DNA of 63,836 nt. It comes from Rotaria magnacalcarata (Eukaryota). The notes beneath the pieces are model-generated. The model saw nothing but the letters and a program-made list of their open reading frames with translations. It had not been told where the DNA came from and made no database searches. The DNA is taken from assembly GCA_965140935.1 (NCBI GenBank), contig CBCSLL010000228.1:14084-77919 (forward strand), given 5' to 3'. A program made the position numbers and the translations under genes. Below, piece after piece: positions 5,692-24,251 of this stretch (its first letter is position 1; each line of letters starts with the position of its first letter).

Positions 5692-6071
5692 CGACTATTT
5701 TTGTTTTTCAATAGAACAAAAAACAGACTTCTTTTTTTTTAAGGGTGATAGTTTCCTACTTTTGTTCATTAAATCCAGAATAACCAAATGAAACTGTTTT
5801 TTCGATTAAAAGAGAATAAAAAAAAATAATCTCTATTGAGATATAGAAGATTAATGCAAAATTCGAGTCGATTTAGTAACTTAAAAGAATTTTTGGACGC
5901 TTTCTATGTAGCAAACAACATAGTATTTGAATTTTATTTATTGATTGATCGTAATAGATCCATTTGAAAATCTAAATGCTATAGTTTCGTTTATTTTAAT
6001 ATTGTCGAATAGACATCAAATATTTATCACAGAAAGACATTAATTCGAAAGCAACCTGGATGTAAGTTGTA

Positions 6072-8365
6072 TTACATCCAACCGACCGGATAGCCTCTTG
6101 CTAAATTTTCAGCTTTTAACCATGTATGCAATGGTTCGAAAAAGTCCAATATAGCTTTTGATTCTAATCTATCTTCGTCTGTTAAAACTTTTAAAATGTC
6201 TTGCCATGATTTTGAACTTCCCATAGCTAACATTTTTTTAAATCTGGCGCCGACAAATTTATTACCATATATATCGCACATATGCAATCGTTCCGTGACT
6301 CCTTGTAGTCGACACATAGCACGATAGAATTGAAATTGAAGAATATGAGCAATGAAATATCGTAAATAAGGAACATTCGATGGTATATGATATTTTGCAC
6401 CTGCGTCAAAATTTACTTTATCACTTCGATCTACAGCTGCCATTACGCCGCCATATTCGACACGTAAGGCCCACCACTGAGAATTTAATTCATATTCACG
6501 ATCGATTTGACCACGGAAAAGTAAAAATCGATATTTATCCATAATATAGCCAAATGGTAGAAAAGCAACTTTTTGTAATGCTAGACGAAATAGAAAATTG
6601 ATTTCGTAATGTTGATTCACAGCTTCTTCATCAAGAAAACCCAATCTTATTAAATGAGACGGTGAAACTAATAATAAATTTATAAAAAAATAAATAAATC
6701 ATTCAGTCAATAAACAAATCTTACTTGCATACATTCCAATGGTATCTCCAATGGCTTCATGAAAACCCGAATTAGCACCATCTCGATAAGCAAATGGTTG
6801 TTTTTCACCGTAAGCCATATAATATTCTACATGGCCCATTTCATGATGAATAGTATAGAAATAATCATCGTCAATTTCAGTACAAATTTTAACACGATAA
6901 TCATCATGATATCCCATATCGGACGCAGATGGATGACAAACAACATCACGGTCAGTTGGTTTTGTAAATAAACTACGAGCCCAAAATTTCGGTGTCATTG
7001 GATAAAGACCAATCGACGTAAAAAACGACTCGGATGTTGTATACATCTGATGAGTCGTAAACTTTTTCTTGGTTAACACTTCTGTTATATTAACTAGAGG
7101 CGCATCCGGATAAGGTATCAAATCATCAAAACGATCATGCCATGTTTGAGCCCACATATTACCTGAAAAAGATTGTAAATTAAATTTTCATATAAACAAT
7201 AAGAAACCAACCAAGAATATGTGCTGGAATAGGTCCATTACAACTAAAACGATTTGGATACATTGAACATAAACGACCTCGAACATACGCGTGTAGTTGT
7301 TCATATAATGGCATAATGTCTTTTAAGAGTTGATCAATAGTACCTTCGAATTCTACAACGCCACCCATCTCATAATCTTTAATCCAATATTCCTGATAAA
7401 GAAAAAACGTTTGATAAACGCATTCAACCATTTATAATTTAAATCAAATATTTACAGATAGATCAGTATATCCATTTTCTTTGATATTTTTATTCAATAG
7501 ATCAATATAAGATAAATAAACTGGACGAACTTTATTTCCACATTCATCGTGCCAGCCTTTCCATGCCCATGTTAAACGATCATAATCTTTTTCAACTTGC
7601 ATAACCCGTTCTAAATACGGCGCAAGTGCGTAACATTTTCCAGGATCACTTGATTCGCAAACCTTTGCGACTGCATAAATATTTTCTAGTTTTGCATGTA
7701 ATTTAGACGCTTTTTTCAACTCAACCATATTATCACTGACTACGCCTGTTGCTAAACGGCCGAATATACGTTTTAAATCGCCATTTTCGGATTCTTTTAA
7801 ATTTTCATTAAATTCTTTTGCTATTGGTACTACTTTATGACTAAACGGCGATTGAAGGAGACTTTGAGCAGTCATTAATTTTTGATTTTCTTCAGTGATA
7901 TTTGTCTCATAATTCCAGTGAAGATGTGCACTTACCTAAATAGAAGAAGAAGAAGGAAAAACTGATATAAATAAATTCCATTGTATTTAATTTTAATTTT
8001 ACTTGATGATGGCGTTGTGCTATACGAAAATACCATTTTAGCCATGCTGTTGCAGTCACTTCATCTGAATAATCGGTAATTGTTGGCATTGTTTTTTCAT
8101 CCTCTGCATTTAATCTATTCCATAATTCAACATTTACACGATCATTAGGATCCACTTGTGGCTCTATATTAAGCGAATCTGGATTATTATCATTATTTGC
8201 GTCGAATGTAATTGGTTCGTCAAAGTCATCGGTAAGATGTAATTTCAAAATATCTAACAGTTGTTCGAATCGTCTGTCAAAATGATGGTTACGTTTTTGA
8301 TATGATGTTGAAAATTCAAATGAAGAAATAAATAAAAGACTAACAATAATAATACAATTTTTCAT
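6072..8365 (-). CDS. Angiotensin-converting enzyme-like peptidyl-dipeptidase (peptidase family M2), single catalytic domain; exon model join(8003..8365, 7456..7935, 7212..7392, 6725..7162, 6072..6661) on minus strand
   Basis: The translation contains 'HHEMGHVEYYMAYGEKQPFAYRDGANSGFHEAIGDTIG' (HEMGH zinc-binding motif plus the downstream EAIGD third ligand region). Other ACE-like segments are 'GPIPAHILG|NMWAQTWHD', 'NYETNITEENQKL', 'FLFRLALQKVAFLPFGY' and 'FDAGAKYHIPSNVPYLRYFIAHILQFQFYRAMC'. Exon 1 carries an N-terminal hydrophobic signal peptide, 'MKNCIIIVSLLFISS'. All five exons are phase-consistent, total 2052 nt (683 aa). Introns are 45-67 bp with GTAAAA/GTAAAT/GTTGGT/GTAAGA donors. Confidence 0.85.
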
Positions 8366-9698
8366 TGTATTTTATTTTTGTAAAATCTAAAACATAATTT
8401 TCTAATAGAAATACTATTGCAGCCTTTTCTCGATCATAGTTATGAATTGTACATTCTAATGAAATATGTACTTACTGATTGTGTACGTTTTTCTTTTTTA
8501 TATGTTATATACACCCACGCAACGAAAATAAAACAAAATGAGGAAGGTATCAGCATGTTTATGAATGCTTTTCAACCAATATTATGCTATTATTTAATAC
8601 CGAAAATGAATCGATCGTTAGATTCTTTTTGCATGGTTCTGGTTATTAACAAGTTTATAAGCCGCATATAAATATTACAAGGTTTGCTGTTTTTTTCATT
8701 ATATGATTCCTGTACAATTATTTATAGTATACCCCAACGGGCATAGTCGAATTTTTTCTTCTCATACTTACGTGATTCGTTGTGCACAACTACACATGTC
8801 AGAGAAAAAACGATTCTCTGTTACCACCATTTTGCGACCAAGCTCTGTATACGTGTATATTTTTTTCTTCTCCTATTCCTACGCTTTTTTCTTTCTGTAC
8901 ATATACAGAATAAGAATATTATTCGTATGTATTGATACCGCTGTCATCATCCAGCGCTACCAAAATGATGACAGGCTTATGTTGATGCTTAAGGTTCTGT
9001 TTAACAATATTATCGTTTCGTTTGTTCTATGGCAAAATAACAAGCTTTGTTCAATATTTTTTTCTGTCATCTACGCTATTAAACTTCTAAAGATTGGTTG
9101 TATATAATGATTCATTCGTGTCGACTCTTGATGTCATTTGTTGAAAAGAAAATCGTGATGATTAATGCATTAGGAGCGACAAGTGTTAACAGTTATCAGA
9201 AGTTTCTATTCTATTACGCAGAAGAAATGCATTCATATATGTAGTATGTACATGAAAATCATTGGCTGTTTTCTATTTTACATAATGATGACATTGTTGA
9301 TAAACTTTGAGTTGTTGACTGTTTTTAAAAGATGATAGATTTAGATATATTTTCTTTATTTTAATAAACATAGACAAAAAGAAGAAGAAGAAGATGGATA
9401 TAGCTATAATTATGTACTAAATGTTTTATTTATTTATTGGATACACACAAATATATGATTAAAAAAGTTTGCTTGTTGTTATTGTAGAAATCGTCTTGTT
9501 CATCAACGTTTATTTGTTCAAGGCTAAAAATTAAAAGAATAAAAATAAATAAGAAAATTAAAAAAAAAATAAAGTGAAAGGAAAAATGACATGCAATGTG
9601 ACTTTCTAACAAATAGAAAAAAAAGACGAAAACTTACTCGATAAAATGCATTTAACTATATTACATTGATTCATAAGAGTTCGTTTTAACTATGGGCT

Positions 9699-11315
9699 TT
9701 AATTAATACTAACCTGTTTTTCCATTTGCAATTGTTGCATTGTTTTCGCTGGTGGTGTATTAGTAAAGAATAAGTCACGTGTTGTTTTCGCTGGTTTTGA
9801 AGATAGACCGAGCAAATCAAGATCACCAAATGGATTCGAAACCGTTGGTGGAGCAATCGGTGAAGCAGAACTAGGAGTTAACAAATTTGCTTGTGCTTGT
9901 GCTTGTGCTTGTGGAGGAGGAGGAGGCATCGATGTATATCCCATTGTCTGAGGTGGTTGATTATACATTGGTGTAGTGTTATAACCCATCGATTGTGTGT
10001 AATAACCAGTAGTTGGATTAATCACTGGTAGAGAAGGTATCGGTGTCGGTGCCGTATTAAACCATGGATCCGACAATGGATTATTATTTGCGACAGGAAC
10101 CGTAGCTTGAGGAATCACTGTTGCCGTTGTTAGTCCACCGAATATATCGGCCAATGGCTACATATTTAGAGAAAAAAAATTGCTGTGAATAAGTCAAATA
10201 CGTATGTTAAATGTTTCCTTTCTTTTTCGTTTACTACACTTCACACCAAATATGATAAGATAAAATTATGTAAAAGAAAACCTAAAACATTCTTAATTTG
10301 AAAATCTTACGTCAATTGATTGTGGAGGTGGTGGTGCTTGTGTAACAACGGCAGGAGTGTCATTGAAATTGAATAAATCATCAATTGGTGTCTGACTTGG
10401 TTGTGCGATTGTTGTAGTAGTAGTAGTAGTAGTGCTTTCTCCCCAAAGATCACCATCAAGAACTGATGGCTAAAAGCAAAATAAATGAGTTGTCTTTAAA
10501 AAAAACTAAATTAATCAAACAGAAAACTCACGGCAGCAGTTGGAGGAACATCGGGTGTTAAAAACAGTGGTTGTGGTGGTGTTGGTGGTTGTGGAGAAAC
10601 AGGCACAGTTGGTGTTGGTGGAAAGGCAGTAGCGACTGGTACTGGTGTCTAAACAGGATTTTAAAAATAGTTTAATAATTGAAAGTTTCTAGAATTGATC
10701 TATACTTGTGCTGGAGCAGGCTGCACCGGAGATGATTCTGGTACAGCTGGTGGTTGATTTGCTTCTCTAGCTTTTTCAGCATTTGTAAATTGTTCAAAAG
10801 CAAATTCAAATAGCTCTTTAAGTGCAAGCACAGTTACAGCAGCTGCTCGCTCGGTTTTGATAGCCCAAAATTGATGGCGATCATCAGTAGTATTATAAAT
10901 ATATCCAAATGCTCGTGTATCCCGAGGATCAATAACAACAAATGATATACGCTCAATTTCATGAGTAGCTATTGATGCCTAATATGTCAACGAGAAAAAA
11001 ATTAAAAACAAAAAGCTTTCTTTCTTAAAATACTTTAGTGGCGTCATCGATAATTTTAACAGCAGTTGTAGTTAAGTTCATTTGAACTTTTTGTTTGTGT
11101 TCTCCGCGAGCGCGCACAACAGCTTTGAGTTTAAACATCGAATCGAGACAAATTTTTTCATCGCGATCAATCGATAAATCCTCCATACCAATGAGTTTAG
11201 CTTTAAATGGAAGTCCTTCACCTTCGAATTTTTTCCCATTTGAACCATTTGCTGTCGTTGCAGCAGATTTGACTTCATTGTCTTTTGTCGGTGTTGCTGC
11301 TGGAGTCTCTGGCAT
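9699..11315 (-). CDS. Disabled (Dab1/Dab2)-like PTB-domain adaptor protein; approx 5 coding exons (11044-11315, approx 10706-10976, approx 10533-10647, approx 10327-10476, 9699-approx 10157)
   Basis: The N-terminal exon gives 'MPETPAATPTKDNEVKSA...FEGEGLPFKAKLIGMEDLSIDRDEKICLDSMFKLKAVVRARGEHKQKVQMNLTTTAVKIIDDATK'. Exon 2 gives 'ASIATHEIERISFVVIDPRDTRAFGYIYNTTDDRHQFWAIKTERAAAVTVLALKELFEFAFEQF'. Together these match the Dab PTB domain almost position-for-position against the vertebrate Dab1 segment FKAKLIGIDEV...CQDSMMKLKG...GEHKQKI. The C-terminal exons are Pro/Thr/Gln-rich and contain coding (QA)n and poly-Thr microsatellites. Confidence 0.8.
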
Positions 11316-12036
11316 CTTTGTATAACTCGTGATTGTTGCTAAATGAATAAAAAAAAACAAAAAGACAAAAAAAATGCAACATGGGTCAATATAAGTGAAA
11401 ATGATAAGAGATTTCTTTTTCTTCGTATGTTGATATCTGTTGCTTATTCATTTGAAGATATTTGAGAAAGACAGAGATAAAATAAAAACTAAATGCGTTG
11501 ACTATTTGCTGCAAGAAAAACGAAGCAACAAAAGAAACAAAGAGATAACTAGATACATGCGAGTGTCTAAGTAAATATTTGAAGTGAAGATGAAAAATGT
11601 GCTTCCTACTAATTCAGAAAATGTTCTTTGGAGATCTTCATTTCTTATAATAGATTTCAATAAGTAAATAAATCACTTAGAGAGTAAAAGAAATAAAATT
11701 CGTCTCAGAAAATTTATAGCGATTTTCCATCGTAGAATTCGAATCTTTGACAAATCGTATATACACTCTTGAATTTTGTATTTATGGATAAAATCTATGT
11801 AGAGGAGCTACTAAATCTCTCTACTGATCAATAAAAGTGTGTAGTTATCTCGTTGGTGGAGTTATGCGACAAATTAAATTTCGTACATCGTTATCCAACA
11901 GATATTTCAGTTATTTTTCGATGCGCTTTTCTCTATGAAACAAGGTAAGTTATAATTGAAGTGAGTTCATCCGGTTTATCGTTTCTGTGGGAAACGATAG
12001 AAAAAAGCTTCGAACTTCTCCGATCCCTATACGTCT

Positions 12037-12165
12037 ACGTCCTTTCTATAAGTCTTTATCTTGTACATATGTATCTGCATCTCCTAACCTATACATCGAA
12101 ATCCCTACATCTAAATATTTACGTCTTAATCTAATATGTCCAAATCTTTACATCAAAATAATACA
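12037..12165. repeat. Degenerate approx 12-bp satellite array (unit approx TACGTCTAAATC), orientation 1
   Basis: Run of approx 10 degenerate units: 'TACGTCTACGTCC', 'CTACATCTAAATATTTACGTCTTAATCTAATATGTCCAAATCTTTACATC' and so on. Confidence 0.6.
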
Positions 12166-12582
12166 GATAAATCCTCACGCTCCTTCTAGGTTACCCTATC
12201 TGACGATCCCATGGGATTTTAACAATATCACCTGGTATGCTAGTAACATCATGTAGGATGCTAGCAGCACCTGTGAAGCAGCAGAATCCAAATTCGTATG
12301 TTAAACTCCACGATGGCTAAAGGTAGATGCCGCTGTGTACATAGAGACAAGCGTTGGTCGCGACACTAAAATAAAAGGTTGTGGGGTTACTCATTGCTTT
12401 CCTATGCATAATCTTGCATTACATATAATTGTGCGCTATTGTTTCTTTTTTTTTCCTGAGTTTACGTGGGACTTAATTCGAATTGAACAATTGATATGAA
12501 TCTCAGGTAATGTCTCTAGCATTCCAAGTGAGGGTCAGGGAGGGAATAATCATGGATGGGCATAAAGATTTATCGATGCTGG

Positions 12583-12752
12583 TTTAGACGTGCTAGATTA
12601 GAATGTACAGATTAGAACGTATAAGATTTAGACGTATAGATTAGGACATATCTGATTTAGACGTACAGATTTGGATATGATAAATAAATTTGTACTGAGA
12701 AAACAATAACTGTGACTGAAGTATCAGTTTATTGGCGATTTAGACGTACTTC
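12583..12752. repeat. Degenerate approx 12-bp satellite array (unit approx GATTTAGACGTA), opposite orientation to 12037-12165
   Basis: 'GTTTAGACGTGCTAGATTAGAATGTACAGATTAGAACGTATAAGATTTAGACGTATAGATTAGGACATATCTGATTTAGACGTACAGATTTGGATATG', plus an extra unit 'GATTTAGACGTAC' at approx 12738. This is the reverse complement of the unit in the 12037-12165 array. Confidence 0.65.
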
Positions 12753-13797
12753 AGAGCCCCTCCAGAAATCTTCGTCTGTTTTTCTATCAGCGTTTCCGAG
12801 AGAAATCATAAAGCGGATTACATGAATTTAAGTCTAACAGTTTACTACAAATTTCTATAATAAAATTTTCCAATTGAATTATTTTTAAAAGATCTTATTA
12901 ATTTGTTACTAAAAACCATATTTCAACTTCTAATGTTTTTCTAGATTCAAACTTTTATCAGTTTGATTCCAATTTTTATCAACAACAAATGTACGATCTT
13001 TGTTTCGCTGTAATCATTACATGATATCGACTGTGAAAGATTTACAATTGTTGGATTATAGAGAAATTCAGTTGTAATTTTCTCACGTGTTAAACTAAAT
13101 GAGCTGCAAACAACAATGTTCATCTAGAATGGGTCAATATGACAAAACATAACAGACAAAGAAAACAACTTGATGATGTATAAGTCTTAAACTAGACATG
13201 AACAGCGTCGTGTTCACTTAGAATAAATAAATCATGACCAAATGGCATCCCGTGAAGTTTTTTACGTCTAAAAAAGTATTGAACCCGAAGTCTGAAATCA
13301 TATAATTCATATGATATTGCAAAATAAATACCTTTCGAATATTTTCCAAAAGGCTAATGGCTTTCTGCTCGATAACCTTTTCATGCGCAAAGTCATATGT
13401 CACGCTCGCCTTATATATTTTTTGTTTTATGACTATACGTGACTTGAATTTACTCTAAATAAACTTGAATACTTTACACCATAGCTGTTTACCATAAAAT
13501 GTAGGCAGAATAAAATTGCATTAATATCATTGTCATTAACGAAATCGTATTCAACTTCTTTTTACCGTGCATTTATAGACCTGCATGGGCAACCAACAAG
13601 AAATTAAAAGAAAAAATGCGACTCGAAATAAACCCATTCGCCAAAAATTAGAAATTAATAATAAGACTGAAAATCCATGTTTTGACTATAGAATTAAATA
13701 ACGCGTGCCAAAAATTAGTTTTGCTTCGGTGATCACTATGAATTCCAAGAAGCGTCTATAGAAAAATCTATGCATCACTGAGATTATTTCATGTTCT

Positions 13798-14140
13798 ACC
13801 CCCCTCCCCCTCCCCATAGAAACCCCCCTTTAATTAATTAATTTTTTGCTAATTATAAACTTTAATTAGCGTTTTTCCATCAAAATATGCCTGATTCTTC
13901 GCATTTTGAGCAGGAAATATCAAAAGAATGTGTTGACAATTATAATGACACCCTTAGAACCCTGGAAATCCTGATGGAAATCCTGAAAATCGCCTTAGTT
14001 TTCTGGAAAACCATTTAAATTAAATATTAGGAAAAAATGCGGTTCTTAATAGAAGGCCCTCCAGGAGAATTTTTACGCTGGAACATAATAGAAGACCCGG
14101 GGTCTTTTATTGTGACGGGGAAGGGGGGGGGGGGGATATT
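13798..14140. repeat. Poly-C / poly-G pair: C-rich block (13798-13825, 'CCCCCCTCCCCCTCCCC...CCCCCC') and a 14-nt G run 'GGGGAAGGGGGGGGGGGGG' (14117-14140)
   Basis: The two tracts are reverse-complementary in composition and sit approx 300 bp apart. Long G/C homopolymers are rare in this AT-rich sequence. Confidence 0.6.
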
Positions 14141-14295
14141 GTCCTTTTCATAAAAAAAAAACATTCTAGATATTTATAAATAATGACTTTTTCTCGCTCT
14201 TGGTGCTTTCCTCAGATTGTTTTAACACTTAAGAATGTACTTAGACATAGAACGAGCATTCAAACAAGTATTTCTAATTTAAAAAATGTGAAAAC

Positions 14296-14458
14296 ATCGA
14301 ATTTAAATCTGAGTGTTATGTGTACTTCAAAGAGTAAAACTAATTGATGACAACTTGATTTTGATCAAACTATCTAAAAAAAATAAAAAAACAAGTGAAT
14401 ATACTTTTTCACTCTTTGAAGTACACATAGCTAACACTCGGATTTAAATCCGAGGTTT
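14296..14458. repeat. Hairpin-forming inverted repeat (approx 45-bp arms, approx 65-bp spacer), MITE-like
   Basis: 'CGAATTTAAATCTGAGTGTTATGTGTACTTCAAAGAGTAAAA' (14299-14340) is reverse-complementary to 'TTTTCACTCTTTGAAGTACACATAGCTAACACTCGGATTTAAATCCGAGG' (14407-14456). Confidence 0.75.
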
Positions 14459-14984
14459 TTGCATTTATTCTATAAGACATTTGATCTCATCAAGATACAT
14501 CTCTTGTCACTAAATTGCAAGGAGAAAATACGGGCGTGCTAAATTATCATGGACCACACTGTCTGAGACCCTATCCGATGACCACTGACTCTACTCTTCG
14601 AATGATATAATATCTTAGAAACCACAGAAATTGAGCTCAGATTCGTGTTTAGCTTTGAAAACTGTGTAAGAAGAGTTATTTTGAATGGATTTGTGTTTGT
14701 ATCTAGCGAGATTACGAGTGTAAGCAGCCTCATTAATCTATACGAGATATATGATAGATACAAGTATCAATATTTTCTTAATAAATCACCAATATTAATA
14801 GCTATCGAGTTTGGGTTTTCCCTTTCGATGATCCTTTTGACTAGCTACAAAACCAGGCATTTGTAAAATTCCAAACTACTGGTCATCTGAGACATATCTA
14901 GGCAATTTGGTTTCTGGATGCAGTTTTGGTGCATTTTGACACCTTTTTCAGGCGATTTTTTGTTAGAAAGCTACGATCTGGTTC

Positions 14985-15305
14985 AAAATTAATATCAGAT
15001 TCGGAATCAGCGTTAAACACTGAGTCGATCTATATATGTTGTGAATAATTCTGAGAGAAAAATTGTTTTTTGAAAAATCCCTGTACTCCCCCTCAGGGAT
15101 GGTCTGGTCAATAATGACAATTTTTTCGATAGCTTAGCCATTTCTTGACGGATTGCTTTCATCTTCGAACTCGGCTGAGATATTGATAAGATCATTCTGT
15201 GTACAAAATTTCATGACAATTGGATGAGGCTTTCAAAAGTTATCGTGTTAACGGACGGACGGTCGGACACACTGACAGAATCTAGAGTGTACTCAATTTT
15301 TGAGT
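14985..15305 (+). repeat. Interspersed repeat, copy A (approx 320 bp seen; family also present inverted at 63541-63836)
   Basis: 14988-15305 aligns with the reverse complement of 63541-63836, with roughly 80-85% identity by eye. Shared blocks include 'ATATCAGATTC(G/A)GAATCAGCGTTAAA', 'GAAAAATCCCTGTACTC(C/T)CCCTCAGGGATGGTCTG', 'TTCTTGACGGAT', 'CATCTTCGAACTCG' and 'GGACGG(A/C)(C/T)GGACACACTGAC'. Confidence 0.8.
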
Positions 15306-15713
15306 ACATAAAACGAACACACGCGCCTCTTCAATATAAAAAGTCAACAGTTCATTGTTTTTTAATTATGAAATTTTATTAAACACATCTTAAATTCTCT
15401 CCTAAGACAATAATAACTGATCCTATTCCACATATGTCTCAATGGATTGATAGCTTGAACATTCTTTTTTTTTCTACTTACTAATCGAACTTGAGGAAAG
15501 ACGCATCTTCACTTGTATTCAAATAAACAATTCTATTGATCATATACACATACGCCATTACACATTGATTAGATAAGATCTATGTCATATACGTTTCAAA
15601 TTTCTTTATTTGATTTTTAATCAACAACGAACATTTATATCATACATGCATATCTATGAAACAGAGAAGAAGAAGAAAAAAGACCGGTATTCTTATGCTC
15701 CTAAATGAGTCTT

Positions 15714-16880
15714 TTATTTGTATTTAAATCCAAATGCAAATCCACTTGTAGTTAATATTGTACAAGGCGAATTGCGATCCATTAATTGAAATTGTTCACA
15801 ATTCGATGAGTGATTTGGATTCAATGAATCTTCATTATCGTAAAAACTTGAATGACGAAAGCAATGACAAATATTTATTTTTAATTTCATAAAAAGACGT
15901 TTCCATTCACGACGAAATTTTGAATCAAATAAAATATAAATATAAAAATTTATTGCGAATGATATTTGATATATTGAATGAAAATACTTTTCTAATAGAA
16001 GAATTAATTTTGTTTCAACTATTTTGTGTCCATATAGTAAACGCCATGTATGAATAGATGCATACGGGGCACATATTATTAAATATGATGTCGAAACAGC
16101 TAACAGTAATTTCGTCATTTTACGTGAAGCATTTCGACGTGTTATTTCACGAATTTTATTCAATTGAGAATGATTTCGAAAAAGAAATTCATGTGGACTT
16201 TGTTTCATTCGTCGTAAAGATATTAATATAATTGTATTCATTACTATGATCGAAATATACGGAATAAGAAACACAACAAAGCAATCCACTATATCCATTA
16301 ATTCATTTATCCAACGTAAATGTTTCAATGAAAAACATTGCCCATTAACAATACCGATAAGAAATGGTAAATATGAATAAATTAAACAAGCAATGAATAT
16401 TATGAATAAAGCTAAACATCGAGAACGATACCATGAAAGTACATGTGAAACACGAAATGGTTTTACAACAGCAAATAAACGTTGAGCTGTAAATGACACT
16501 GTATAATAGGCACTTATAAAATTACATACATATGTTAAATATAATGTTAATTGGCAAACTACTGGACGATGAAGGAGATTTATATAATTCGATACCCATA
16601 AACAAAATAAAACAAATAAATATATTGTATCCGAAATAGCCATATAAAAAAGAAATGGATACACGGACATATTCGAGCCCATGGATGCAATCGTCGTACG
16701 TAATGCTCGTTGACCAAAAACAATAATTGCAAAACCATTTCCAATGCATCCGATTAACACTAATAGTAACCAATAGATATGACGAAAGAAAAAATCCAAT
16801 AGAGTTATAGGTGATGGCAGTTCCGCCGTATCCAAACTACTATTTAAACTCGTCGATGTGATATTCTCTGCATCAATCAT
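15714..16880 (-). CDS. Intronless rhodopsin-like (class A) G-protein-coupled receptor, orphan; 388 aa
   Basis: This is a single uninterrupted 388-aa ORF with seven hydrophobic helices. The N-terminal ectodomain has N-glycosylation sites (NITS, NSS). The TM3 end reads 'SFTAQRLFAVV', an AQR variant of the D/ERY motif. TM7 reads 'AINFYIYILF', an NFxxY variant of NPxxY. It has a long basic third intracellular loop ('SLRRMKQSPHEF...RRNASRKMTK') and a cysteine-containing C-tail. Confidence 0.8.
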   Translation of the reverse strand: MIDAENITSTSLNSSLDTAELPSPITLLDFFFRHIYWLLLVLIGCIGNGFAIIVFGQRALRTTIASMGSNMSVYPFLFYMAISDTIYLFVLFCLWVSNYINLLHRPVVCQLTLYLTYVCNFISAYYTVSFTAQRLFAVVKPFRVSHVLSWYRSRCLALFIIFIACLIYSYLPFLIGIVNGQCFSLKHLRWINELMDIVDCFVVFLIPYISIIVMNTIILISLRRMKQSPHEFLFRNHSQLNKIREITRRNASRKMTKLLLAVSTSYLIICAPYASIHTWRLLYGHKIVETKLILLLEKYFHSIYQISFAINFYIYILFDSKFRREWKRLFMKLKINICHCFRHSSFYDNEDSLNPNHSSNCEQFQLMDRNSPCTILTTSGFAFGFKYK

Positions 16881-19695
16881 TATTCAAATCTAAAATATCA
16901 GTTTAATTCAAGATTTTTATAGTTTCTGAGTGTTTCTCGTAATGATGAATAATGGTTCGATAATTATCGAAAAGAAAATCTTTTTATATAACACTCATTA
17001 AATGTGAAATGACCCTCATAGGAAAATAATGGCGGAGTATACCTCGCTCTTCTGTTTTTACTTAAGTTTTCTGCTTCTTGTCTCTTATATTCACATTTCA
17101 GATAATGACAGTTGGACATTCAAGAGTACGATTAAACCCTAATAGATGCTAAATTGCTAGACAATATATCATATTCATATGCAAATACTGAACTAATCTA
17201 TTTACTGTCGTAGAATTTATATTAAACGAGATACCTCATGATTGGAATGCAAACAGAAAAGAATAGCAAGAGGCAAATTCTAAATATTTCTACTCAATAA
17301 TACAATAGTATATATCTATATATACGAAATAAACCTACTTCAATGCAACATAAGTCAATTATGATGTAAATAATCTTAATGAGGACGAAAAACACAAGTA
17401 GCACACGTTCTACATATGAGAGACTTCAATGTTGTATAAGTAAAATGTTGTCTATTAACTATCGAGGGGTTTTTATGTTATTAAAATTTATGTTTGTGTA
17501 GACTATTAACTTTTTTTCCTGCTGTAATTCCAACGTTAATGATACGCACGGAACAAAAACTATGCGAATATGATAAATAATTAGTCAAATCGTATGAATA
17601 GTTTTTTCCTAGGAGCGTTTTCCTTTTCCCTATGCTAATGATAAATGCTTGTAAAATAATTAACGATCAGTTCCTTCACGAAAAGTCAACATGATAATTA
17701 TGCAGCAAAAACAGATGAATATATGTCATGAACTAGAAACTTATTGCGAGATTGAAGACTCAATGTAACTGAGTGAGAAAATGTCTCATAGGAGTACTGC
17801 AACGATTGCAAAAGACAAGTGTTAACCCATTCGATTGTCAAATAACAACTAATTTATTTTCCATACTTGGAAGCAAGACAAATGCCTACCGTTTACGTGA
17901 CCTGATTGTTATCTATCGTTGGAGCTATTGAGTAGAAAAATAAAACAAAAATACTGATTAGTCTTATGACAACCAAAGAGAGGAGATGAAAGCGTAGGAT
18001 TAGATACTCAATTTCCATGATAATATGTTACTCGGCTAGTGTTAAGTAGTAAAACTAAAGCGAACTCTAGATGAAAACAAAACAAAGTGTTCCGCAACAA
18101 ATGCAAATAATTGTTTAAAGATATTTTATTATCATATATAATAAAAGTCAACTGTCGGGAATCTTAGTTCAACACTTGGCATATTAAAAAAATAGTCGAT
18201 AGAAAAGAATGCGAATCATCAGTTTAGAAAGAAACAAGAAGCAGACGACAGAACTGTCAGCAGTTACATCATATTGGTTTTGTATTTTCAACATTAAACA
18301 TATTCGATAAATATCAAATACTTAAAATTCTGTATTTCATCAAAAAGAAAAGGAAAAAATGTTGCTATTCAGATAAATACAAAAATGAACATTAGCATGC
18401 GTTTGTGGGCCTAAAACGACTGTTCTTATAGAGAAAAAGAGAATTTTTAATTTTAGCCTGCCAATTCGATTTTAACAGCATTATCACGTCTATTTAATGG
18501 ATAAAATAATAATTATCTTATGAATATTCTTTTATCTCAGTTGATCATAAAACAAAGAAAAACGATTTCGTTCAAATATTGCATGTATTTAGAACCGTAG
18601 AATTAAGTATGGAAAAAACCAGCGATAGCAATTTACGTTTTTCTCGGTGTTGAAGCATCAAATTATCTAGTTTGAATACGTATATATTTGAGTAAAGTTC
18701 TCATTATAAATGAAATAAAATATTCTAAGTCGCATATAAACGCAAAGTTTTTGGTTTTCTTCACGCCTACTATTAGTAAGCGCGGTACCAAAAATATGTA
18801 ATCATTGAACTCATATAAACTTTAATTGTGCTCTTTGACGTGTATGATGAACTTATTCTGATATTGAAAATTACTTTTATTAAAATCTAATCCTTTAAAA
18901 TGATAGCCATGCATTCAGTCATGATCACTTCTTGTTTTGTCTCCTTTCAATTGAACAATTGGCGAAGTTTCTTTTCTCTTGTAAAACACTACTATACCCA
19001 ATAATCAGGCAAGGAGTCCGTTTGATTCCAGTCTTTTTTTTTCTAAAGCTTCGATGATAAATGTATTATTTTACTTTTGAGAGAGTTTTCATTTTCTACT
19101 TTTAGGATTCATATCATATTTTTGCCGGTACAACCGAATTTGGATCCAATGTCTATCCTTTCTTTCTATTTAACAGACTATTAATCTGAATCAATGAACA
19201 TGATATATGGAAATGTCAGTCGAATTAATGGCTTGTAATTACTTTTTTTTATAACAGAAATCTTCCTCATTTACTCACGTGTTGCTCAATTTATAAGCTA
19301 ATTGACTTTTGAAAATAACGGTTTAGCAATAAAAAAAAAGTGCAACTTTATGACGATGATAATGGGTGTGATTTTTATTAATCAACAATAAGATAAGAAT
19401 GTACATTTTATTACGCTCAATCTAAAATAGAAGTAAGATTTCCCTATTTCGTACTTTTACTCCCGAGAAAATGCATTTTTACAAAAACAAGATAGCGCAA
19501 CGTTTCGATTGAAATTTAAAAACGGTCTGCTCTTTCTAATCGAATGATGCTCAGCTTCGAAAAATCTTTCGTTTTGTGGCAAAAATGAGTTATATTATTC
19601 TTTTTCATTAAAATGCGTTTTCGCAAGCGTAACTTGTGAAATACGTAGTAGACTATGACGTGTAAGAAAAATGTATGCTTGCTACTTGTGAGAAT

Positions 19696-21019
19696 AATGA
19701 GTCTTATTCACACTTTACTTGTTGGCCACGAACATGTTTAAAACTGGCCCCCCAAATAAATTTTTGTTGCTAAGAGCGGTTTATTTCCTTTTACCTATCT
19801 TTGACAATCGTCTTCCTTGCTTAGAGCATGTCCTCTTTGGTGTCACCCCGATTCGTCCCTTTTAATTTTTTCTTAACTCGTCCCATTCCGAATTTGTACC
19901 TATCTCAATTCGTCCCATACTTAATTGGTATCTAATTTTTCGGAATGTCATGATTATGCCCATCTATTGAATGCTAAATATATACTAATTACGATACCTT
20001 ATGTCTCGTTGGCCTTCCGAAGTACGAAAAAAACTTAGAAAATAGCGTGCACAAAGAAAATTGCTTTTATTTCTCTAGTAAACCAAATAACTACCATGCT
20101 TAAGTTCACATATAGCGAACGTTCAAAGCTTGTGTTGAACTTTAAAGGACATCAATATACCAAAAACCGGGAAGATAAAACTGGTCAAGAAAAAGAACAA
20201 TAAAGAGAGTAATAGCTTTAATGTAATCTTATTTTTCTTTGATAATAAATAGTTCTTTCTCTATAGGGTATTATATTAATTTACAGACAATCAGGGACGA
20301 GTTAAGAAAAATTTAAAACGGACGAATTGGGTATGGGACCAATCAGGGGCGAATCGGGGCTAAACCGTCCACTTTTCGCCTTTCCTCTTTCTCCTCTCCT
20401 TAATTGCGTTATCTCTTTGAAGTTGTCTTTTTCTTTTCTTTTTCGTCAAGACATGATCAACATCGGAAAGATACAAAAGTTATGTTTTTGCTTATTTTTC
20501 TAATCATTACAACTATCAACCATAAAAAGATTTGGATAATTTTTGTCATACGAACTTTTCGCTTAAAACTAAATTCTTCTGATAAATTACGACTGTTTTT
20601 TTTTAATTTTCACATCACTCCTGCTGTTATTATTCAAGTATTAACATATATGAAATAGGTGTTTTATGAACTAGAAATTAATTGTAACAAATTTAGTTGT
20701 AGTCTATATAAATACATCGTAATCCTTTTATCGTTGATAGTTGTAATGAATAGAATAATAAGCACGAACATAACTTTCGTATCTTTCCAATGTTAATCAT
20801 TTCTTGACGAAAAAGAAAGGAAGAAGACAACTTCAAAGAGATAACGCAATTAAGGAGAGGAGAAAGAGGAAAGGCGAAAAGTGGACATGCTCTAAGGAAG
20901 GAAGACGATTGTCAGAGATAGATAAAAGGAAATAAACCGCTCTTAGCAACAAAAATTTATTTGGGGGTCAGCTTTATACATGTTCGCGGTCAACAAGCAA
21001 AGTGTGAATAAGGCTCATT
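19696..21019. repeat. Complex nested inverted-repeat (foldback-like) structure, approx 1.3 kb: outer arms A 19696-19834 / A' 20881-21019; inner pair B 19845-19930 / B' 20281-20362; pair C 20360-20450 / C' 20800-20885
   Basis: A 'AATGAGTCTTATTCACACTTTACTTGTTGGCCACGAACATGTTTAAAACTGGCCCCCCAAATAAATTTTTGTTGCTAAGAGCGGTTTATTTCCTTTTACCTATCTTTGACAATCGTCTTCCTTGCTTAGAGCATGTCC' is the reverse complement of A' (approx 90% identity). C 'CACTTTTCGCCTTTCCTCTTTCTCCTCTCCTTAATTGCGTTATCTCTTTGAAGTTGTC...CGTCAAG' is the reverse complement of C' 'CTTGACGAAAAAGAAAGGAAGAAGACAACTTCAAAGAGATAACGCAATTAAGGAGAGG...GAAAAGTG'. B/B' share 'CCCCGATTCGTCCC...TTTTAATTTTTCTTAACTCGTCCC'. Confidence 0.8.
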
Positions 21020-21896
21020 CAAATTTTCAGTCGCACAAGTAGTAAAGGTAAAGAAAGAATAATCGTCTAATTATATAATCCAGAGTGTAATAAAAAATGC
21101 AACCTATTATTGTCCACCAGAGCAGAAAGTCTCTATACCAATTACAATATCCTTAGAAATTCTTTTACGAACTTCACGTTTGAGTACCCTTAGGATTTCC
21201 ATCCGAACTACTGACGGTGTTTATTACGATCTGCATGTGTTACGTTAAATATAGCAAAAATGCTCTATTCCGAACATCCGGTAAACACATTACGATCTTC
21301 CTGCTGTCTGTTGCGATCTCCGACACATAGATGTTTACGAACTCCTGTCATAAATTTTTACGAATAAAATTCATTTCCGAACATCCGGCAACGTTTACTG
21401 GTGTTCGGAAGAGATGAGACGAAACGTAAGTCACCCGAAAAAATAGGCAATTTACTTTGACAGCAGCATCAAAGTTTCTCAACTTAACCACACGAACGGA
21501 AAAAATGATTTTTGACCTCGAATAATAGGGCTGAATACACTAAAAGCGCAAGTATCTATATATATATATTAATGAGAGATCATTATTTTGCATCATACAA
21601 GAAAAGCAATTCAGTAGAATTCTTGCAACAATGTCTATTCAATACGTTAATAGATCATAGGAGCTGGAGCTTTTTCTGTCTGCACGAGACAAATTTCATC
21701 AAGTTTTTAACTGTAATTACAGTAAAAGTGAATAGTTACTTACTCTTATTAGTCTGGGAAATCTTGAGAAAAACAGCTACCGCATGTGTTAGATTTGAGA
21801 ATTCGGTCACAATGATCTTTTCAACATTCAAAGATGGTCATAGAAAAAGTGCATCAGCAAAAGGCATAACGTATTTTAGACGGAAATAGTGATATA

Positions 21897-23000
21897 TATA
21901 TATATATCAGAGACCGAAATCGAATCGAATCGAATGAATAAAAAAAAATGAAAAAAAGCCTAATCGAATCAATTCATTTTTCTTTCAGTTTCATTCGGCT
22001 ATTCAAAATCATTTTCTTTGTTCTGGTGTTATGGTCGAGGGTAGTTGACTAGTACACAAGAGATGACGAATGAAAAACGACGTCCACTGTTTCTCTTCCT
22101 TTGTTTCTGTCAGTCGTGCTTATTCAATAGTCATCCTTGTTCTGTTCATATCTTGAAGGTGTGGGTGTGAATTAAGGCATGTGATTGGTGTATTAAGAGG
22201 TAAGTAATCTTTTGGAGGTGATTTAACTCTTAATGTATCAATTAGATTGCTTAATACGACTTTAACTTTATTCACATTTCCAGTGCGATTGGGTTCTTGA
22301 TATCAGCCTCTTCATTTATTAAGCATGGGTACGGTCAACTGTAAATATAGATCCATATACAGTAAATAACATTATTTTTCTTCGTTCTATACAAAATAAA
22401 CTTATTTACTTACTCTACTTAGATGTGTTCATTAATTTATATTTTATGTATTCTTTCTTGAAAAAAATGAATAACCCAGGTCGACTGATCCGATAGGAAC
22501 CTGGAAATATCCTACACTCCGATACAATTCTATTGGATTCCAGGTCGAGGAATCAATGTCGGATCCTCAGTGTCGGAATCCTATGAACTTCCGATGACAT
22601 CCAACGGTTTTTCGTTGGAATTCATAGGAATCCGACACTGAGGATCCGACATCGATTCCTCGACCCGGAATCCAACGATAATTCTGTAAGATCTGACAGG
22701 ATCCGATAAAATCGTATTGGATTCCAGTCGGATCGGATGGGTTCCGATAGGTGCCTACTGGCGGATTGCTCGACCTGGGAATTCTTATGTAATTATATAT
22801 TCATAAATTATATTTATTCAACATATTATCTATAGAAGATCGACAGACTATTCTCATTCTAAGAAGATGAGAGTCTGAAAACAACAGTACCATGTTTTGT
22901 AAACCCAATTTGAGTCGAATCCGGATCCCGGTCCTGAAAACCCGAATCGAACCGAATGGCACTTTTGTCGTTCGTTTCGGTCTCTGACTCTGATATATAT
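21897..23000. mobile_element. Non-autonomous DNA-transposon-like element (MITE-like, approx 1.1 kb) with terminal inverted repeats, inserted between (TA)n tracts
   Basis: Left end 'TATATATCAGAGACCGAAATCGAATCGAATCGAATG' (21893-21930). Right end 'CATTCGGTTCGATTCGGG...TTTCGGTCTCTGACTCTGATATATATA' (approx 22935-23000). The two ends are imperfect reverse complements (core CAGAGACCGAAA / TTTCGGTCTCTG). (TA)n flanks both ends. The interior has no ORF and contains a 45-bp-arm perfect palindrome at 22543-22665. Confidence 0.55.
22543..22665. repeat. Near-perfect palindrome (45-bp arms, approx 33-bp loop) inside the MITE-like element
   Basis: 'GGTCGAGGAATCAATGTCGGATCCTCAGTGTCGGAATCCTATGAA' (22543-22587) is reverse-complementary to 'TTCATAGGAATCCGACACTGAGGATCCGACATCGATTCCTCGACC' (22621-22665), with a single mismatch. 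Confidence 0.85.
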
Positions 23001-23127
23001 ATGTTGCAGGGCAGATTGAAATTCAGTTCAGATTAAAATAACTTCGATTTCAACAAAGAAAAATTTTAAACTGAACTAGTTCAGATCAAAATTATTTTAA
23101 TCTGCACTGGATTTTAATCTATCCTAC

Positions 23128-23165
<38 letters not shown>
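23000..23165. repeat. (AT)n microsatellite (approx 23128-23162) preceded by a short inverted repeat 'CAGATTAAAATAA...TTATTTTAATCTG'
   Basis: Approx 17 AT dinucleotide units at 23128-23162. Arms of the inverted repeat are at approx 23021-23036 and 23090-23105. Confidence 0.8.
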
Positions 23166-24251
23166 TCAAAGAGCGAAATATTACGATATCATGTGGATCT
23201 TTCTTTTTAAACTGCTGAAATTAAGTAAGACAACGGCTTATTTTCATGATTGGAAAAACGACTAACTGCTGCTTTCTCTTTCGAAAAAATAGATCAAATT
23301 TTTAAAATTTATTCGCGTGAAAAAATAAATTCTAAGAAAAAACATTATTGCTTTTAATACAGTGAAAAAGTACTCGAAAAAATGCTCTTAAAGATAAATC
23401 GACTACAATTAGATCAGTCTCATTGCCTGGCTTTTTACGAGCTATTTCGATGGCGCTAGAAAGTAATTAGCACTGAAATAGTAGATTTCCATAAAAAGGA
23501 GAAAAGAGAACTGTCTACTTCAATAAAACTTAAAGTTCTTTATTACCCTATTTTATGCTTTTTTTCAATTAATAATCAAGGAAAATGTTCAAAACATCTG
23601 CTGCTTTGGATTTTATCTAAGCGTATCGGATGGAAAACTTTAAAAACCGTTATATTTCAACAAGCATAATTATATTGATAAAATTTATTACCGTAATAAC
23701 CAAATCTTCAATAAAGTAGATATCTTGACGGTTCTGTTTAATGAACGCTAAACTATTTTAAATGAGGAAATTCACGACAACATATAAATAAAGAGAATAA
23801 TGATATAATAGTTCAAGTTCTACTATAATATATAATTAGTTCTTTTGGCAATAGCTATTCCTAAACGTTGCAAAAATTTATTGAGAAAAAAATAATGTCG
23901 TCAACCCTTTCCACTGGGATCTGACGATAAAGTTGTTTTCATCGCATTCAATATATATCTTTTTTTTTACTATATAGATACACAAGATAGAACAAGAGAA
24001 AAGAAAAAAATCCAAGTGCTTTCAGATTATAACTTCTTTTTTTCAAAGTGCACTGTTTCGATAGTAATACGTTCAGAAAAAAAGTGAAGAGTACTTTTTT
24101 TCTTGAATTTACCCACTGAATTCAATTAGTGCCTGGAAAAATCAAGGTCATAAAATATAAATTTATTGATAAATCTATACTGTTTCTTAGTGCAATAATC
24201 AAGCGTAAGAACAATAAAAAAAAGAAATTAAAATGCCAACAAAAAATGACT

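Follow-up and report, generated by a model that had tools for sequence, protein, structure and literature searches.

Within a stretch of 63,836 nucleotides of Rotaria magnacalcarata DNA (the window), a G-protein-coupled receptor (GPCR) gene with an undivided coding sequence and unconventional residues at its activation motifs lies among genes cut into many short exons; the question raised by this locus is whether the receptor is an aberrant newcomer or an ordinary one. We find that it is ordinary: both the “odd” motifs and the lack of introns are usual in its receptor group. An ORF scan of the window (GC = 32%) places the 388-aa, ATG-to-stop reading frame at 15714..16880 on the minus strand, the longest in the window, with a runner-up of only 213 aa. 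The encoded protein is the same as R. magnacalcarata CAF1108191.1, an unnamed GPCR-family entry, and it is found, encoded by one exon, in six R. magnacalcarata records. Taken together with its Pfam 7tm_1 match, this makes it highly probable that the ORF is the complete CDS of a functional, conserved single-exon gene of this bdelloid, encoding a class A (rhodopsin-beta, peptide-receptor-like) GPCR of the GPR139/142 and protostome supergroup.

The limits of the gene are well marked. An in-frame TGA lies two codons 5' of the ATG (16884..16886, minus strand), so that the frame has no upstream extension unless it is spliced, and the homologues begin within a few residues of one shared alignment column, with N- and C-termini that match those of the 388-aa query. 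The original prediction had raised two ways in which it could be mistaken: that the ORF might be one exon of a larger spliced gene, or that correction of a frameshift might restore canonical DRY and NPxxY motifs. The first is ruled out by the upstream TGA, by stand-alone annotation in nine assemblies from three species and by the coinciding termini of the homologues. As for the second, no frameshift was found, and a frameshift or mis-assembly masking canonical motifs is excluded by the identity of the protein in six independent R. magnacalcarata records and by the invariance of the motifs in 57 homologues. Introns in the 5'-UTR of the gene are possible; a 2.4-kb Logan contig (ERR2135452) follows the genome collinearly from end to end and carries no poly(A), and so is uninformative on splicing or expression. 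An AATAAA hexamer at 15605..15610 (minus strand), 104 nt past the stop codon, is a candidate polyadenylation signal. The ratio dN/dS is 0.27 against R. socialis and 0.24-0.42 across all pairs computed, which shows that the receptor gene is under purifying selection; the CDS is ~95% identical to that of R. socialis at the nucleotide level (61 differences in 1,167 nt) vs. 88-91% for the flanks.

The call of a class A GPCR made in the original prediction was borne out both by the Pfam 7tm_1 match (PF00001; E=5.5e-14, 52.7 bits against a cutoff of 30.5) and by a seven-helix model. The top PDB sequence matches found with HMMER were NTSR1, the motilin receptor and the CysLT receptors, with NTSR1 scoring highest (E=7e-14, 54.9 bits) in an alignment running from TM1 to helix 8. 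The AF2 model has seven TM helices, helix 8 and an ECL2 hairpin; it was built from a shallow 23-sequence alignment (pLDDT 61.9) and is used for topology only, with no inference on side chains or the TM7 kink. In a Foldseek search, its top matches were all peptide GPCRs (NMUR2, NTSR1, opioid, CCK1R; probability 1.00), with TM scores of 0.66-0.77 by target length and 0.50-0.60 by query length. The microswitch and scaffold set of class A is present, with position numbers assigned via alignment to NTSR1: N48 (N1.50), D84 (D2.50), C109 and C182 (the C3.25-ECL2 disulfide), R134 (R3.50), P207 (P5.50), P272 (P6.50), N311 (N7.49) and Y315 (Y7.53), all of them family-invariant. The residues invariant in 23 bdelloid sequences comprise N48, D84, C109, Q133-R134-L135, C182, P207, N215, P272, N311-F312, Y315 and F322.

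The receptor is not the isolated orphan that had been proposed, since it has 57 close homologues across bdelloids (53-92% identity between genera), with syntenic single-exon orthologues in Rotaria, Adineta and Didymodactylos, and a paralogue in the same species. Rotaria and Adineta vaga share a block that contains sulfite oxidase, the GPCR, a PID-domain gene, peptidase M2 and HIT; a clade-B paralogue belongs to the ohnologous block, which is on a different A. vaga chromosome, and this B copy is also present in Rotaria, including R. magnacalcarata itself. The gene and its B copy are thus ohnologues, both kept since the ancient genome duplication of bdelloids. With only two loci per haploid genome, there is no lineage-specific intronless expansion of the kind first suggested; the subfamily is small and restricted to Syndermata (bdelloids plus a distant acanthocephalan relative). 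One R. socialis record carries a truncated, 209-aa family member.

The canonical residues E/D3.49, W6.48 and P7.50 are replaced in this receptor by Q133, C270 and F312, respectively. At the cytoplasmic end of TM3, the E/DRY site is Q133-R134-L135 (Q3.49, R3.50, L3.51; 16476..16484, minus strand); the replacement of E/DRY by “AQR,” as first read, was a one-residue register error, as HMMER alignments set the E-R-Y of NTSR1 opposite Q133-R134-L135, so that R3.50 is kept and only 3.49 (acidic to Q) and 3.51 (Y to L) differ. All three residues are invariant in the 23-sequence alignment, and Q-R is found in 56 of the 57 family members, the remaining one being unaligned there. The CWxP site of TM6, aligned to CWLP of NTSR1, is I269-C270-A271-P272 (16065..16076, minus strand): P6.50 is retained and invariant, and the toggle-switch tryptophan is a C, or in a few family members a G. 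The NPxxY site of TM7, aligned to NPILY of NTSR1, is N311-F312-Y313-I314-Y315, with F at 7.50 (15936..15950, minus strand), and NF[Y]xY is present in 57/57 family members. NFYIY was thus correctly recognized in TM7, but it is not peculiar to this receptor, being invariant in its bdelloid homologues and common to the supergroup to which it appears to belong.

That supergroup consists of the deuterostome receptors GPR139 and GPR142 and the protostome receptors for FMRFamide (type 1), NPY-4, proctolin, MIP/sex peptide, myosuppressin/myomodulin and RGWamide; the protostome expansion has GPR139/GPR142 as its deuterostome sister group, and the ligands of the supergroup are mostly amidated peptides with aromatic ends (PMC8557429). 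On the evidence of motifs and of a crude neighbor-joining (NJ) tree with limited sampling, the bdelloid subfamily probably lies inside it. Among the best 147 non-family matches of 1.84 billion representatives, NFxxY is present in nearly all that align and N5.58 in 139/147. In the labelled references (Thiel et al., 2021; PMC8557429, supplementary files 9 and 12), NFxxY is found in GPR139, GPR142, FMRFaR1 (four species) and the proctolin, MIP, myomodulin and RGWamide receptors; NPxxY is instead the motif of the TRHR, EFLGa, luqin, FMRFaR2 and EP receptors. NTSR1 has NPxxY as well. The combination of NFxxY and N5.58, a signature that we observed in labelled members and not a published definition, is carried by the query as NFYIY and N215. 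In the NJ tree (320 columns, 200 bootstraps, capped Kimura distances, few outgroups, with NMU and ghrelin receptors left out), the bdelloid family groups with all NFxxY receptors at 92% bootstrap, to the exclusion of TRHR, EFLGaR and NTSR1; a run without NTSR1 gives 94% for the family placed with the protostome expansion, and the node joining it to its nearest orphan group has 37-59% support only. The ancestral state of this supergroup has NFxxY in TM7 and Asn at 5.58, so that both are inherited features rather than degeneration.

The protostome RFamide/Wamide expansion resembles the bdelloid family in NFxxY, in N5.58 and in its place in the same NJ clade (the 92% node, which includes GPR139/142), and Q3.49 also occurs in its MIP receptor and in the Terebratalia FMRFa1/NPY4-related receptor, the latter being the top labelled match of the family profile (40.9 bits). 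It differs, however, in identity (15-21%), in L3.51 and C6.48, which are peculiar to the bdelloid family, and in the lack of one-to-one orthology to any deorphanized type. Identity to any deorphanized receptor is <=21%, with no one-to-one orthologue, and A1-profile scores against the labelled supergroup references are 23-41 bits. One-to-one orthology to FMRFaR1 was not found: the profile scores are 22-27 bits, identity is 17-19.5% and the family is separate from the FMRFaR1 clade in the trees. Human GPR139 and GPR142 share N5.58 and have NFFLY or NFGLY in TM7, but GPR139 keeps DRY and W6.48 (LWAP), identity is 21%, and the GPR139 sequence from the supplement of Thiel et al. scores only 27.0 bits against the family profile; no GPR139 structure was among the PDB matches listed.

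The nearest relatives outside Syndermata are a protostome orphan group, A2, with 25-30% identity and <=157 bits against the family profile. These receptors also have NFxxY and N5.58, have also lost W6.48 and have a single-exon CDS in Lingula and Owenia, but they mostly carry E3.49 (ERY or ERF) and LNLPS in TM6, where the bdelloid family has QRL and ICAP. Naming group A2 from database entries was abandoned, as the RefSeq auto-names are mutually inconsistent: “thyrotropin-releasing hormone receptor” (Lingula, Periplaneta, Onthophagus), “FMRFamide receptor-like,” “npr-9-like” and “kappa-opioid-like.”

By raw HMM score, NTSR1, which is outside the supergroup, exceeds any labelled supergroup member (54.9 bits), and the best PDB scores come from the neurotensin/NMU/ghrelin/TRH receptor group. 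Like the bdelloid receptor, NTSR1 has N5.58, an ECL2 hairpin and the disulfide between C3.25 and ECL2, and NTSR1 and NMUR2 dominate the Foldseek neighbor lists. Nonetheless, the features expected of a member of that group were not found: NTSR1 has ERY, CWLP and NPILY, so that all three motifs differ, identity is ~20%, and the tree places both NTSR1 and TRHR outside the NFxxY clade. Our literature search returned nothing useful on NFxxY or on FMRFamide receptors together with NPxxY, and no paper on bdelloid GPCRs of this type. The practical gain is one of annotation, beyond which it matters little: an “unnamed protein product” becomes a placed member of the GPR139/142 and protostome RFamide/Wamide supergroup and one of a syntenic ohnologue pair conserved across bdelloids.

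If the receptor works as its relatives do, its ligand would be extracellular and most probably a neuropeptide, plausibly one whose C-terminus is amidated and either aromatic or hydrophobic, as in most deorphanized supergroup members. The ligand pocket would lie under the ECL2 beta-hairpin, itself presumably tied to TM3 via the C109-C182 disulfide, and the activation signal would pass through D2.50, P5.50, P6.50, N7.49 and Y7.53 to R3.50, which may then couple to a heterotrimeric G protein; basal activity may be changed by the neutral residue at 3.49 (Q) and by the lack of W6.48. The family is a candidate for deorphanization in rotifers, a phylum with very few neuropeptides and no receptors characterized; in Rotaria, very few neuropeptide precursors have been found (PMC8557429). 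One could go further and propose that the bdelloid and acanthocephalan receptors are an undescribed, Syndermata-specific type within the GPR139/protostome RFa/Wa supergroup, with a peptide ligand of its own and with Q3.49, L3.51 and C6.48 giving unusual signaling, e.g., high constitutive activity. We regard this as a tentative idea, more doubtful than not; if true, it would offer an entry point to the almost unexplored peptidergic signaling of gnathiferans.

Q3.49, C6.48 and F7.50 together could mean unusual G-protein signaling or none, and the residues had indeed been taken as atypical from the start. One such reading, that the receptor is constitutively active, arrestin-biased or a non-signaling decoy, draws on the loss of the acidic 3.49, the W6.48 toggle and the P7.50 kink all at once, with substitutes that are family-invariant, and on general pharmacology, as neutralization of D/E3.49 often raises the basal activity of GPCRs. 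However, F7.50 and N5.58 are common to the ligand-activated FMRFaR1, proctolin, MIP, myomodulin and RGWamide receptors and GPR139; W6.48 is absent from these receptors too, except GPR139; Q3.49 occurs in the deorphanized Platynereis MIP receptor; and R3.50, D2.50, N7.49, Y7.53 and the helix-8 Phe are intact. Class A receptors often, but not always, carry E/D3.49, W6.48 and P7.50, and deorphanized supergroup members lack these residues too. We thus consider atypical signaling improbable. For genome scans, the lesson is that non-textbook DRY and NPxxY motifs are no evidence of aberrant signaling, because NFxxY is the norm of a whole bilaterian receptor clade.

It is about equally improbable that the protein is an Srw-like environmental chemoreceptor and not a neuropeptide receptor. 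The ORF does match Pfam 7TM_GPCR_Srw (PF10324; E=8.9e-5), and many of its relatives have precomputed Srw or Srx matches, but the 22.4 bits of this match are marginal, barely over the cutoff of 22.2 and far weaker than the 7tm_1 match. Chemoreceptor families are typically large, fast-evolving expansions in tandem arrays, whereas this family has two loci per haploid genome, stable synteny, well-conserved sequences across bdelloid genera (53-92% identity) and purifying selection, and its closest relatives in both structure and sequence are peptide receptors.

An ordinary neuropeptide receptor is, then, the preferred reading, and its lack of introns is equally ordinary. The undivided coding sequence in an intron-dense neighborhood was correctly described in the original prediction: it is one exon in all annotated assemblies, and the neighboring genes are cut into short exons by gaps of ~30-60 nt (the peptidase M2 ORFs, for example, stop and resume at 6644/6699 and 7875/7907). 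This contrast, together with the enrichment of GPCRs among intronless genes (PMC8302217), is what speaks for a processed retrogene, i.e., a recent copy, made in this lineage by retroposition, of a GPCR parent with introns, but such an origin is very unlikely. The locus is syntenic between Rotaria and Adineta; the paralogue in the ohnologous block implies that the gene was intronless already before the bdelloid genome duplication; and the nearest outside relatives, in Pomphorhynchus (an acanthocephalan), Lingula (a brachiopod) and Owenia (an annelid), are single-exon too, so that the intronless state long predates bdelloids. The marks of retroposition were likewise not seen: there is no poly(A) remnant at the 3' end of the gene (~240 nt separate the stop from the nearest A9 run), there are no convincing target-site duplications (the flanking direct repeats are AT-rich and at chance level) and no intron-containing parent was found among 60 close matches. 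The single-exon coding state, seen in all three outside relatives checked, looks inherited; retroposition deep in animal evolution is possible, but such an event would concern more than this gene alone. In an intron-rich genome, a GPCR with one exon reflects an inherited and common condition, and is no sign of recent retroposition. That the ORF is spurious or a decaying pseudogene, as the non-canonical motifs and the truncated R. socialis record might suggest, is extremely improbable, given that 388 open codons would arise by chance with a probability of ~5e-14 (from an estimated stop frequency of ~0.076 per codon in AT-rich DNA), that full-length conservation extends over >50 bdelloid sequences and that the CDS has low dN/dS and is closer to R. 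socialis than its flanks are.

The neighboring genes, all on the minus strand, were located by mapping the L001 annotation (window position = 26881 minus the locus coordinate). Downstream of the receptor lies the multi-exon PID-domain gene (9517..15506, from the annotation and a reading of the sequence), to which newer annotations give an extra 25-nt first coding exon at 15482-15506, and beyond it the peptidase M2 (ACE-like) gene (6071..8364), a syntenic anchor with mini-introns that was delimited from the annotation and ORF spacing and has a Pfam Peptidase_M2 match on the exon ORF at 6072-6644. The upstream neighbor, also a syntenic anchor, is the multi-exon sulfite oxidase gene (Cyt-b5, Oxidored_molyb, Mo-co_dimer; 24114..26880), seen also as ORF fragments. 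Between this gene and the start of the receptor, an interval of 7.2 kb (16881..24113) has no called genes in eight Rotaria assemblies, nor does it contain ORFs of at least 60 aa with a Pfam match, Rfam families or tRNAs. The “approx 7-kb repeat-rich gene desert” of the original prediction is therefore gene-free as described, but “repeat-rich” was an overstatement: TRF reports only (AT)16 at 23131-23163, in addition to which the interval holds nested inverted repeats (19696-21019) and two palindromes (22533-22675 and 22993-23140), none of which has a copy in the rest of the window. In A. vaga the homologous gap measures just 1.4 kb, and the 7.2-kb gene-free interval is Rotaria-specific; presumably, it holds the promoter and regulatory region of the receptor gene.

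The class A GPCR is an already deposited, uncharacterised member of a known receptor supergroup (GPR139/142 together with the protostome RFamide/Wamide receptors), and its sole distinction is that it belongs to a small subfamily that so far seems to be specific to Syndermata. The original prediction was essentially right in what it observed, the motif register excepted; its reading of the gene as a retrogene or expansion product, an isolated orphan and a carrier of aberrant coupling motifs is for the most part unsupported. The coding sequence (15714-16880, minus strand; 388 aa from ATG to stop) is the longest in the ORF listing of the 63.8-kb window, where the runner-up is 213 aa. GC content is about 32%, and at our own estimate of about 0.076 stops per codon we put the probability of a 388-codon open frame by chance near 5e-14. 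Reading of the sequence places an in-frame TGA two codons 5' of the ATG. In Pfam the protein matches 7tm_1 (E=5.5e-14, 52.7 bits, cutoff 30.5) and, marginally, Srw (22.4 bits vs. a cutoff of 22.2).

The exact protein is present in both NCBI and UniProt as "unnamed protein product [Rotaria magnacalcarata]" (CAF1108191.1 and others). At 99.9% identity, the window matches contig CBCPNK020000111.1 (GCA_965120335.2). Eight assemblies, four each of R. magnacalcarata and R. socialis, annotate the gene as one 1,167-nt exon, and it also lies on two more short R. magnacalcarata contigs. A second R. magnacalcarata copy, differing by one residue (A19V), is presumably allelic. The same 90% cluster includes an R. 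socialis record (P0064) with a truncated receptor of 209 aa, which may be either a broken allele or an assembly fragment.

The motif register was set by aligning the protein, and a family profile built from 23 sequences, to neurotensin receptor 1 (NTSR1) with HMMER: Q133-R134-L135 aligns with E-R-Y of NTSR1, I269-C270-A271-P272 with C-W-L-P, and N311-F312-Y313-I314-Y315 with N-P-I-L-Y. NFYIY does occupy the NPxxY site of TM7, as proposed. The AQR proposed to replace E/DRY was placed one residue off; R3.50 is kept, and it is the acidic 3.49 and Y3.51 that have changed. Departures from the canonical residues are Q at acidic 3.49, L at Y3.51, C at the W6.48 toggle and F at P7.50. Invariant in the Rotaria, Adineta and Didymodactylos sequences are N1.50 (N48), D2.50 (D84), the C109-C182 disulfide pair, P5.50 (P207), N5.58 (N215), P6.50 (P272), N7.49, Y7.53 and helix-8 F322, as well as Q133, R134, L135 and F312. 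TM7 reads NFY[I/L]Y in all 57 family members retrieved, and the TM3 site reads xQR in 56 of the 57 (the remaining one is unaligned there). Such states reflect constraint rather than decay.

The same TM7 motif extends well beyond the bdelloids. Searching 1.84 billion representatives with the family profile yielded 4,149 matches, with scores falling steeply from 530 bits for the family to 192 for the acanthocephalan Pomphorhynchus laevis, the nearest non-bdelloid relative, and to 157 or less for all others (Lingula and Owenia proteins are among the remoter relatives). When the 147 best non-family matches were aligned to the profile, nearly all that aligned in TM7 carried NFxxY (NFFLY alone 53 times), 139 of the 147 had N at 5.58, TM6 was typically xLNLPS, and the DRY site was mostly ERY or ERF, with a minority of QRF. 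Database names of these relatives conflict (TRH receptor, FMRFamide receptor-like, npr-9-like, kappa-opioid-like), and the group was anchored with labelled reference receptors from the supplement to Thiel et al. (2021; PMC8557429). Among these, NFxxY is found in human GPR139 (NFFLY) and GPR142 (NFGLY), arthropod FMRFamide receptor type 1, the Drosophila proctolin receptor, the Platynereis MIP/allatostatin-B, myomodulin and RGWamide receptors and the Terebratalia FMRFa1/NPY4-related receptor; NPxxY is found in TRHR, EFLGamide, luqin, FMRFamide type 2 and excitatory-peptide receptors and in NTSR1. The labelled NFxxY receptors correspond exactly to what that study calls the "third supergroup", an RFamide/Wamide receptor expansion confined to protostomes, with GPR139/142 as its sister group (PMC8557429). 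The Platynereis MIP and Terebratalia receptors share Q3.49 with our family but read QRY where it reads QRL.

In a neighbour-joining tree (320 columns, 200 bootstraps), the bdelloid family was recovered at 99%, the family with Pomphorhynchus at 100%, and all NFxxY receptors in one clade, without TRHR, EFLGaR and NTSR1, at 92%; a run without NTSR1 placed the family with the protostome expansion at 94%. The idea of aberrant coupling motifs is mostly unsupported, since NFxxY is common to deorphanised receptors of the supergroup and R3.50 is kept. No close relative was found among the deorphanised receptors: the labelled references score 23-41 bits against the family profile, with at most 21% identity, and NTSR1 scores higher (54.9 bits) yet lies outside the NFxxY clade, so the placement holds at the supergroup level only and the ligand is not predictable. 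An unnamed 403-aa protein from a 4150-nt environmental metagenome contig (P0068; VQR at the DRY site, NFFLY in TM7) joins the bdelloid and acanthocephalan clade with 94-96% neighbour-joining bootstrap and may come from another gnathiferan, e.g., a monogonont rotifer.

The contrast between this single exon and its intron-split neighbours is real: peptidase M2, sulfite oxidase, vault protein and exostosin domains fall on short ORF fragments tens of nucleotides apart. A lineage-specific intronless expansion can be dismissed, as there are only two loci per haploid genome. Retrogene origin does not hold up either: neither a poly(A) remnant nor a convincing target-site duplication was found around the gene by sequence reading and a flanking direct-repeat check, synteny is conserved, and ohnologues and outside relatives are also single-exon. 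In Adineta vaga, the order of genes around the orthologue (393 aa, one exon) is that of Rotaria (sulfite oxidase, GPCR, PID-domain gene, peptidase M2, HIT). Clade B homologues (about 65% identity, single-exon, with a "...CC" C-terminal tail) occupy a paralogous block (UAA/TPT transporter, GPCR, PID, peptidase M2, HIT, Cript) of a different chromosome in A. vaga and a comparable block in Rotaria sp. Silwood2, and R. magnacalcarata has the B copy too (392 and 400 aa). Such a block is the expected product of ancient bdelloid tetraploidy, and clades A and B are therefore ohnologues. The receptor, described as isolated, is neither isolated nor young, and its intronless state looks inherited from a deep ancestor, because the ohnologues and all three outsiders checked (Pomphorhynchus laevis, Lingula and Owenia) have single-exon coding sequences. 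This agrees with the enrichment of GPCRs among intronless genes (PMC8302217).

Against R. socialis, the gene has a dN/dS of 0.27 at a dS of 0.13 (Nei-Gojobori; 0.24 in the 7TM core), with values of 0.25-0.42 for all pairs of Rotaria and Adineta A and B copies; the coding sequence is about 95% identical (61 differences in 1,167 nt) vs. 88-91% for its flanks. AlphaFold2, run on a shallow alignment, predicts with modest confidence (pLDDT 61.9) seven TM helices, helix 8 and an ECL2 beta-hairpin, and the Foldseek PDB neighbours of this model are exclusively peptide GPCRs (NMUR2, NTSR1, opioid, CCK1R, kisspeptin and ghrelin receptors). By homology, the protein would act as a ligand-activated class A GPCR, with a presumably extracellular N-terminus bearing the N-glycosylation sequons NIT and NSS, a disulfide-tethered ECL2 hairpin that would cap the binding pocket, and a relay that would run through D2.50, P5.50, P6.50, N7.49 and Y7.53 to R3.50; C348 and C350, past helix 8, are candidate palmitoylation sites. 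Since peptides ending in an amidated aromatic residue activate most deorphanised members of the supergroup (PMC8557429), the ligand would, by analogy, most likely be a neuropeptide; very few Rotaria neuropeptide precursors have been found so far (PMC8557429). Speculating from general GPCR pharmacology, the neutral Q3.49 and absent W6.48 might raise basal activity.

The proposed 7-kb repeat-rich gene desert is indeed gene-free: none of the Rotaria assemblies has a gene call in the 7.2 kb (16881-24113) that separate the receptor from sulfite oxidase, and the interval has no Pfam match among stop-free stretches of at least 60 aa and no Rfam or tRNA match. "Repeat-rich" was generous for a few nested inverted repeats (19696-21019; arms of 143 nt and 166-171 nt, 92-96% complementarity), two palindromes of about 145 nt each (22533-22675 and 22993-23140) and an (AT)16 microsatellite (23131-23163). 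The inverted repeats and palindromes look like foldback or MITE-like structures and have no further copies in the window. In A. vaga the gap at this site measures just 1.4 kb (locus L009, 8626-10001), five-fold shorter than the 7.2 kb of both Rotaria species; therefore the desert is an expansion of intergenic DNA in the Rotaria lineage at a syntenic site and is not tied to the receptor.

On the other side of the receptor, a ~420-nt element (14898-15313) just downstream has three matches at 85-90% identity in R. socialis loci L005-L008 (~11665-12080, 450-1110), at the collinear site, in an adjacent inverted copy and in a remote copy close to sulfite oxidase; it is a dispersed repeat or small mobile element. 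Newer annotations extend the PID-domain gene over 9517-15506 (minus strand) through a 25-nt first coding mini-exon (15482-15506; ATG at 15506, GTAAGT donor) that lies 208 nt past the receptor stop and is followed by a ~4.3-kb intron, very long vs. the ~55-nt introns of this genome; older annotations start the gene near 11228, and the mini-exon may be either a genuine alternative first exon or an artefact of gene prediction. The putative long intron holds a tandem repeat (12583-12672; period 14, 29 or 43 nt, ~2-6 copies). Farther along, major vault protein domains (Vault_4, Vault_3, MVP_shoulder) fall on two exon blocks in opposite orientation about 3 kb apart (31837-32430, plus strand; 35663-36235, minus strand), which suggests an inverted duplicate of the MVP gene; in A. 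vaga, the paralogous block of the GPCR also has a vault gene beside it. An exon-sized ORF of another multi-exon gene (44645-45241, minus strand) carries the C-terminal part of an exostosin GT47 glycosyltransferase domain.
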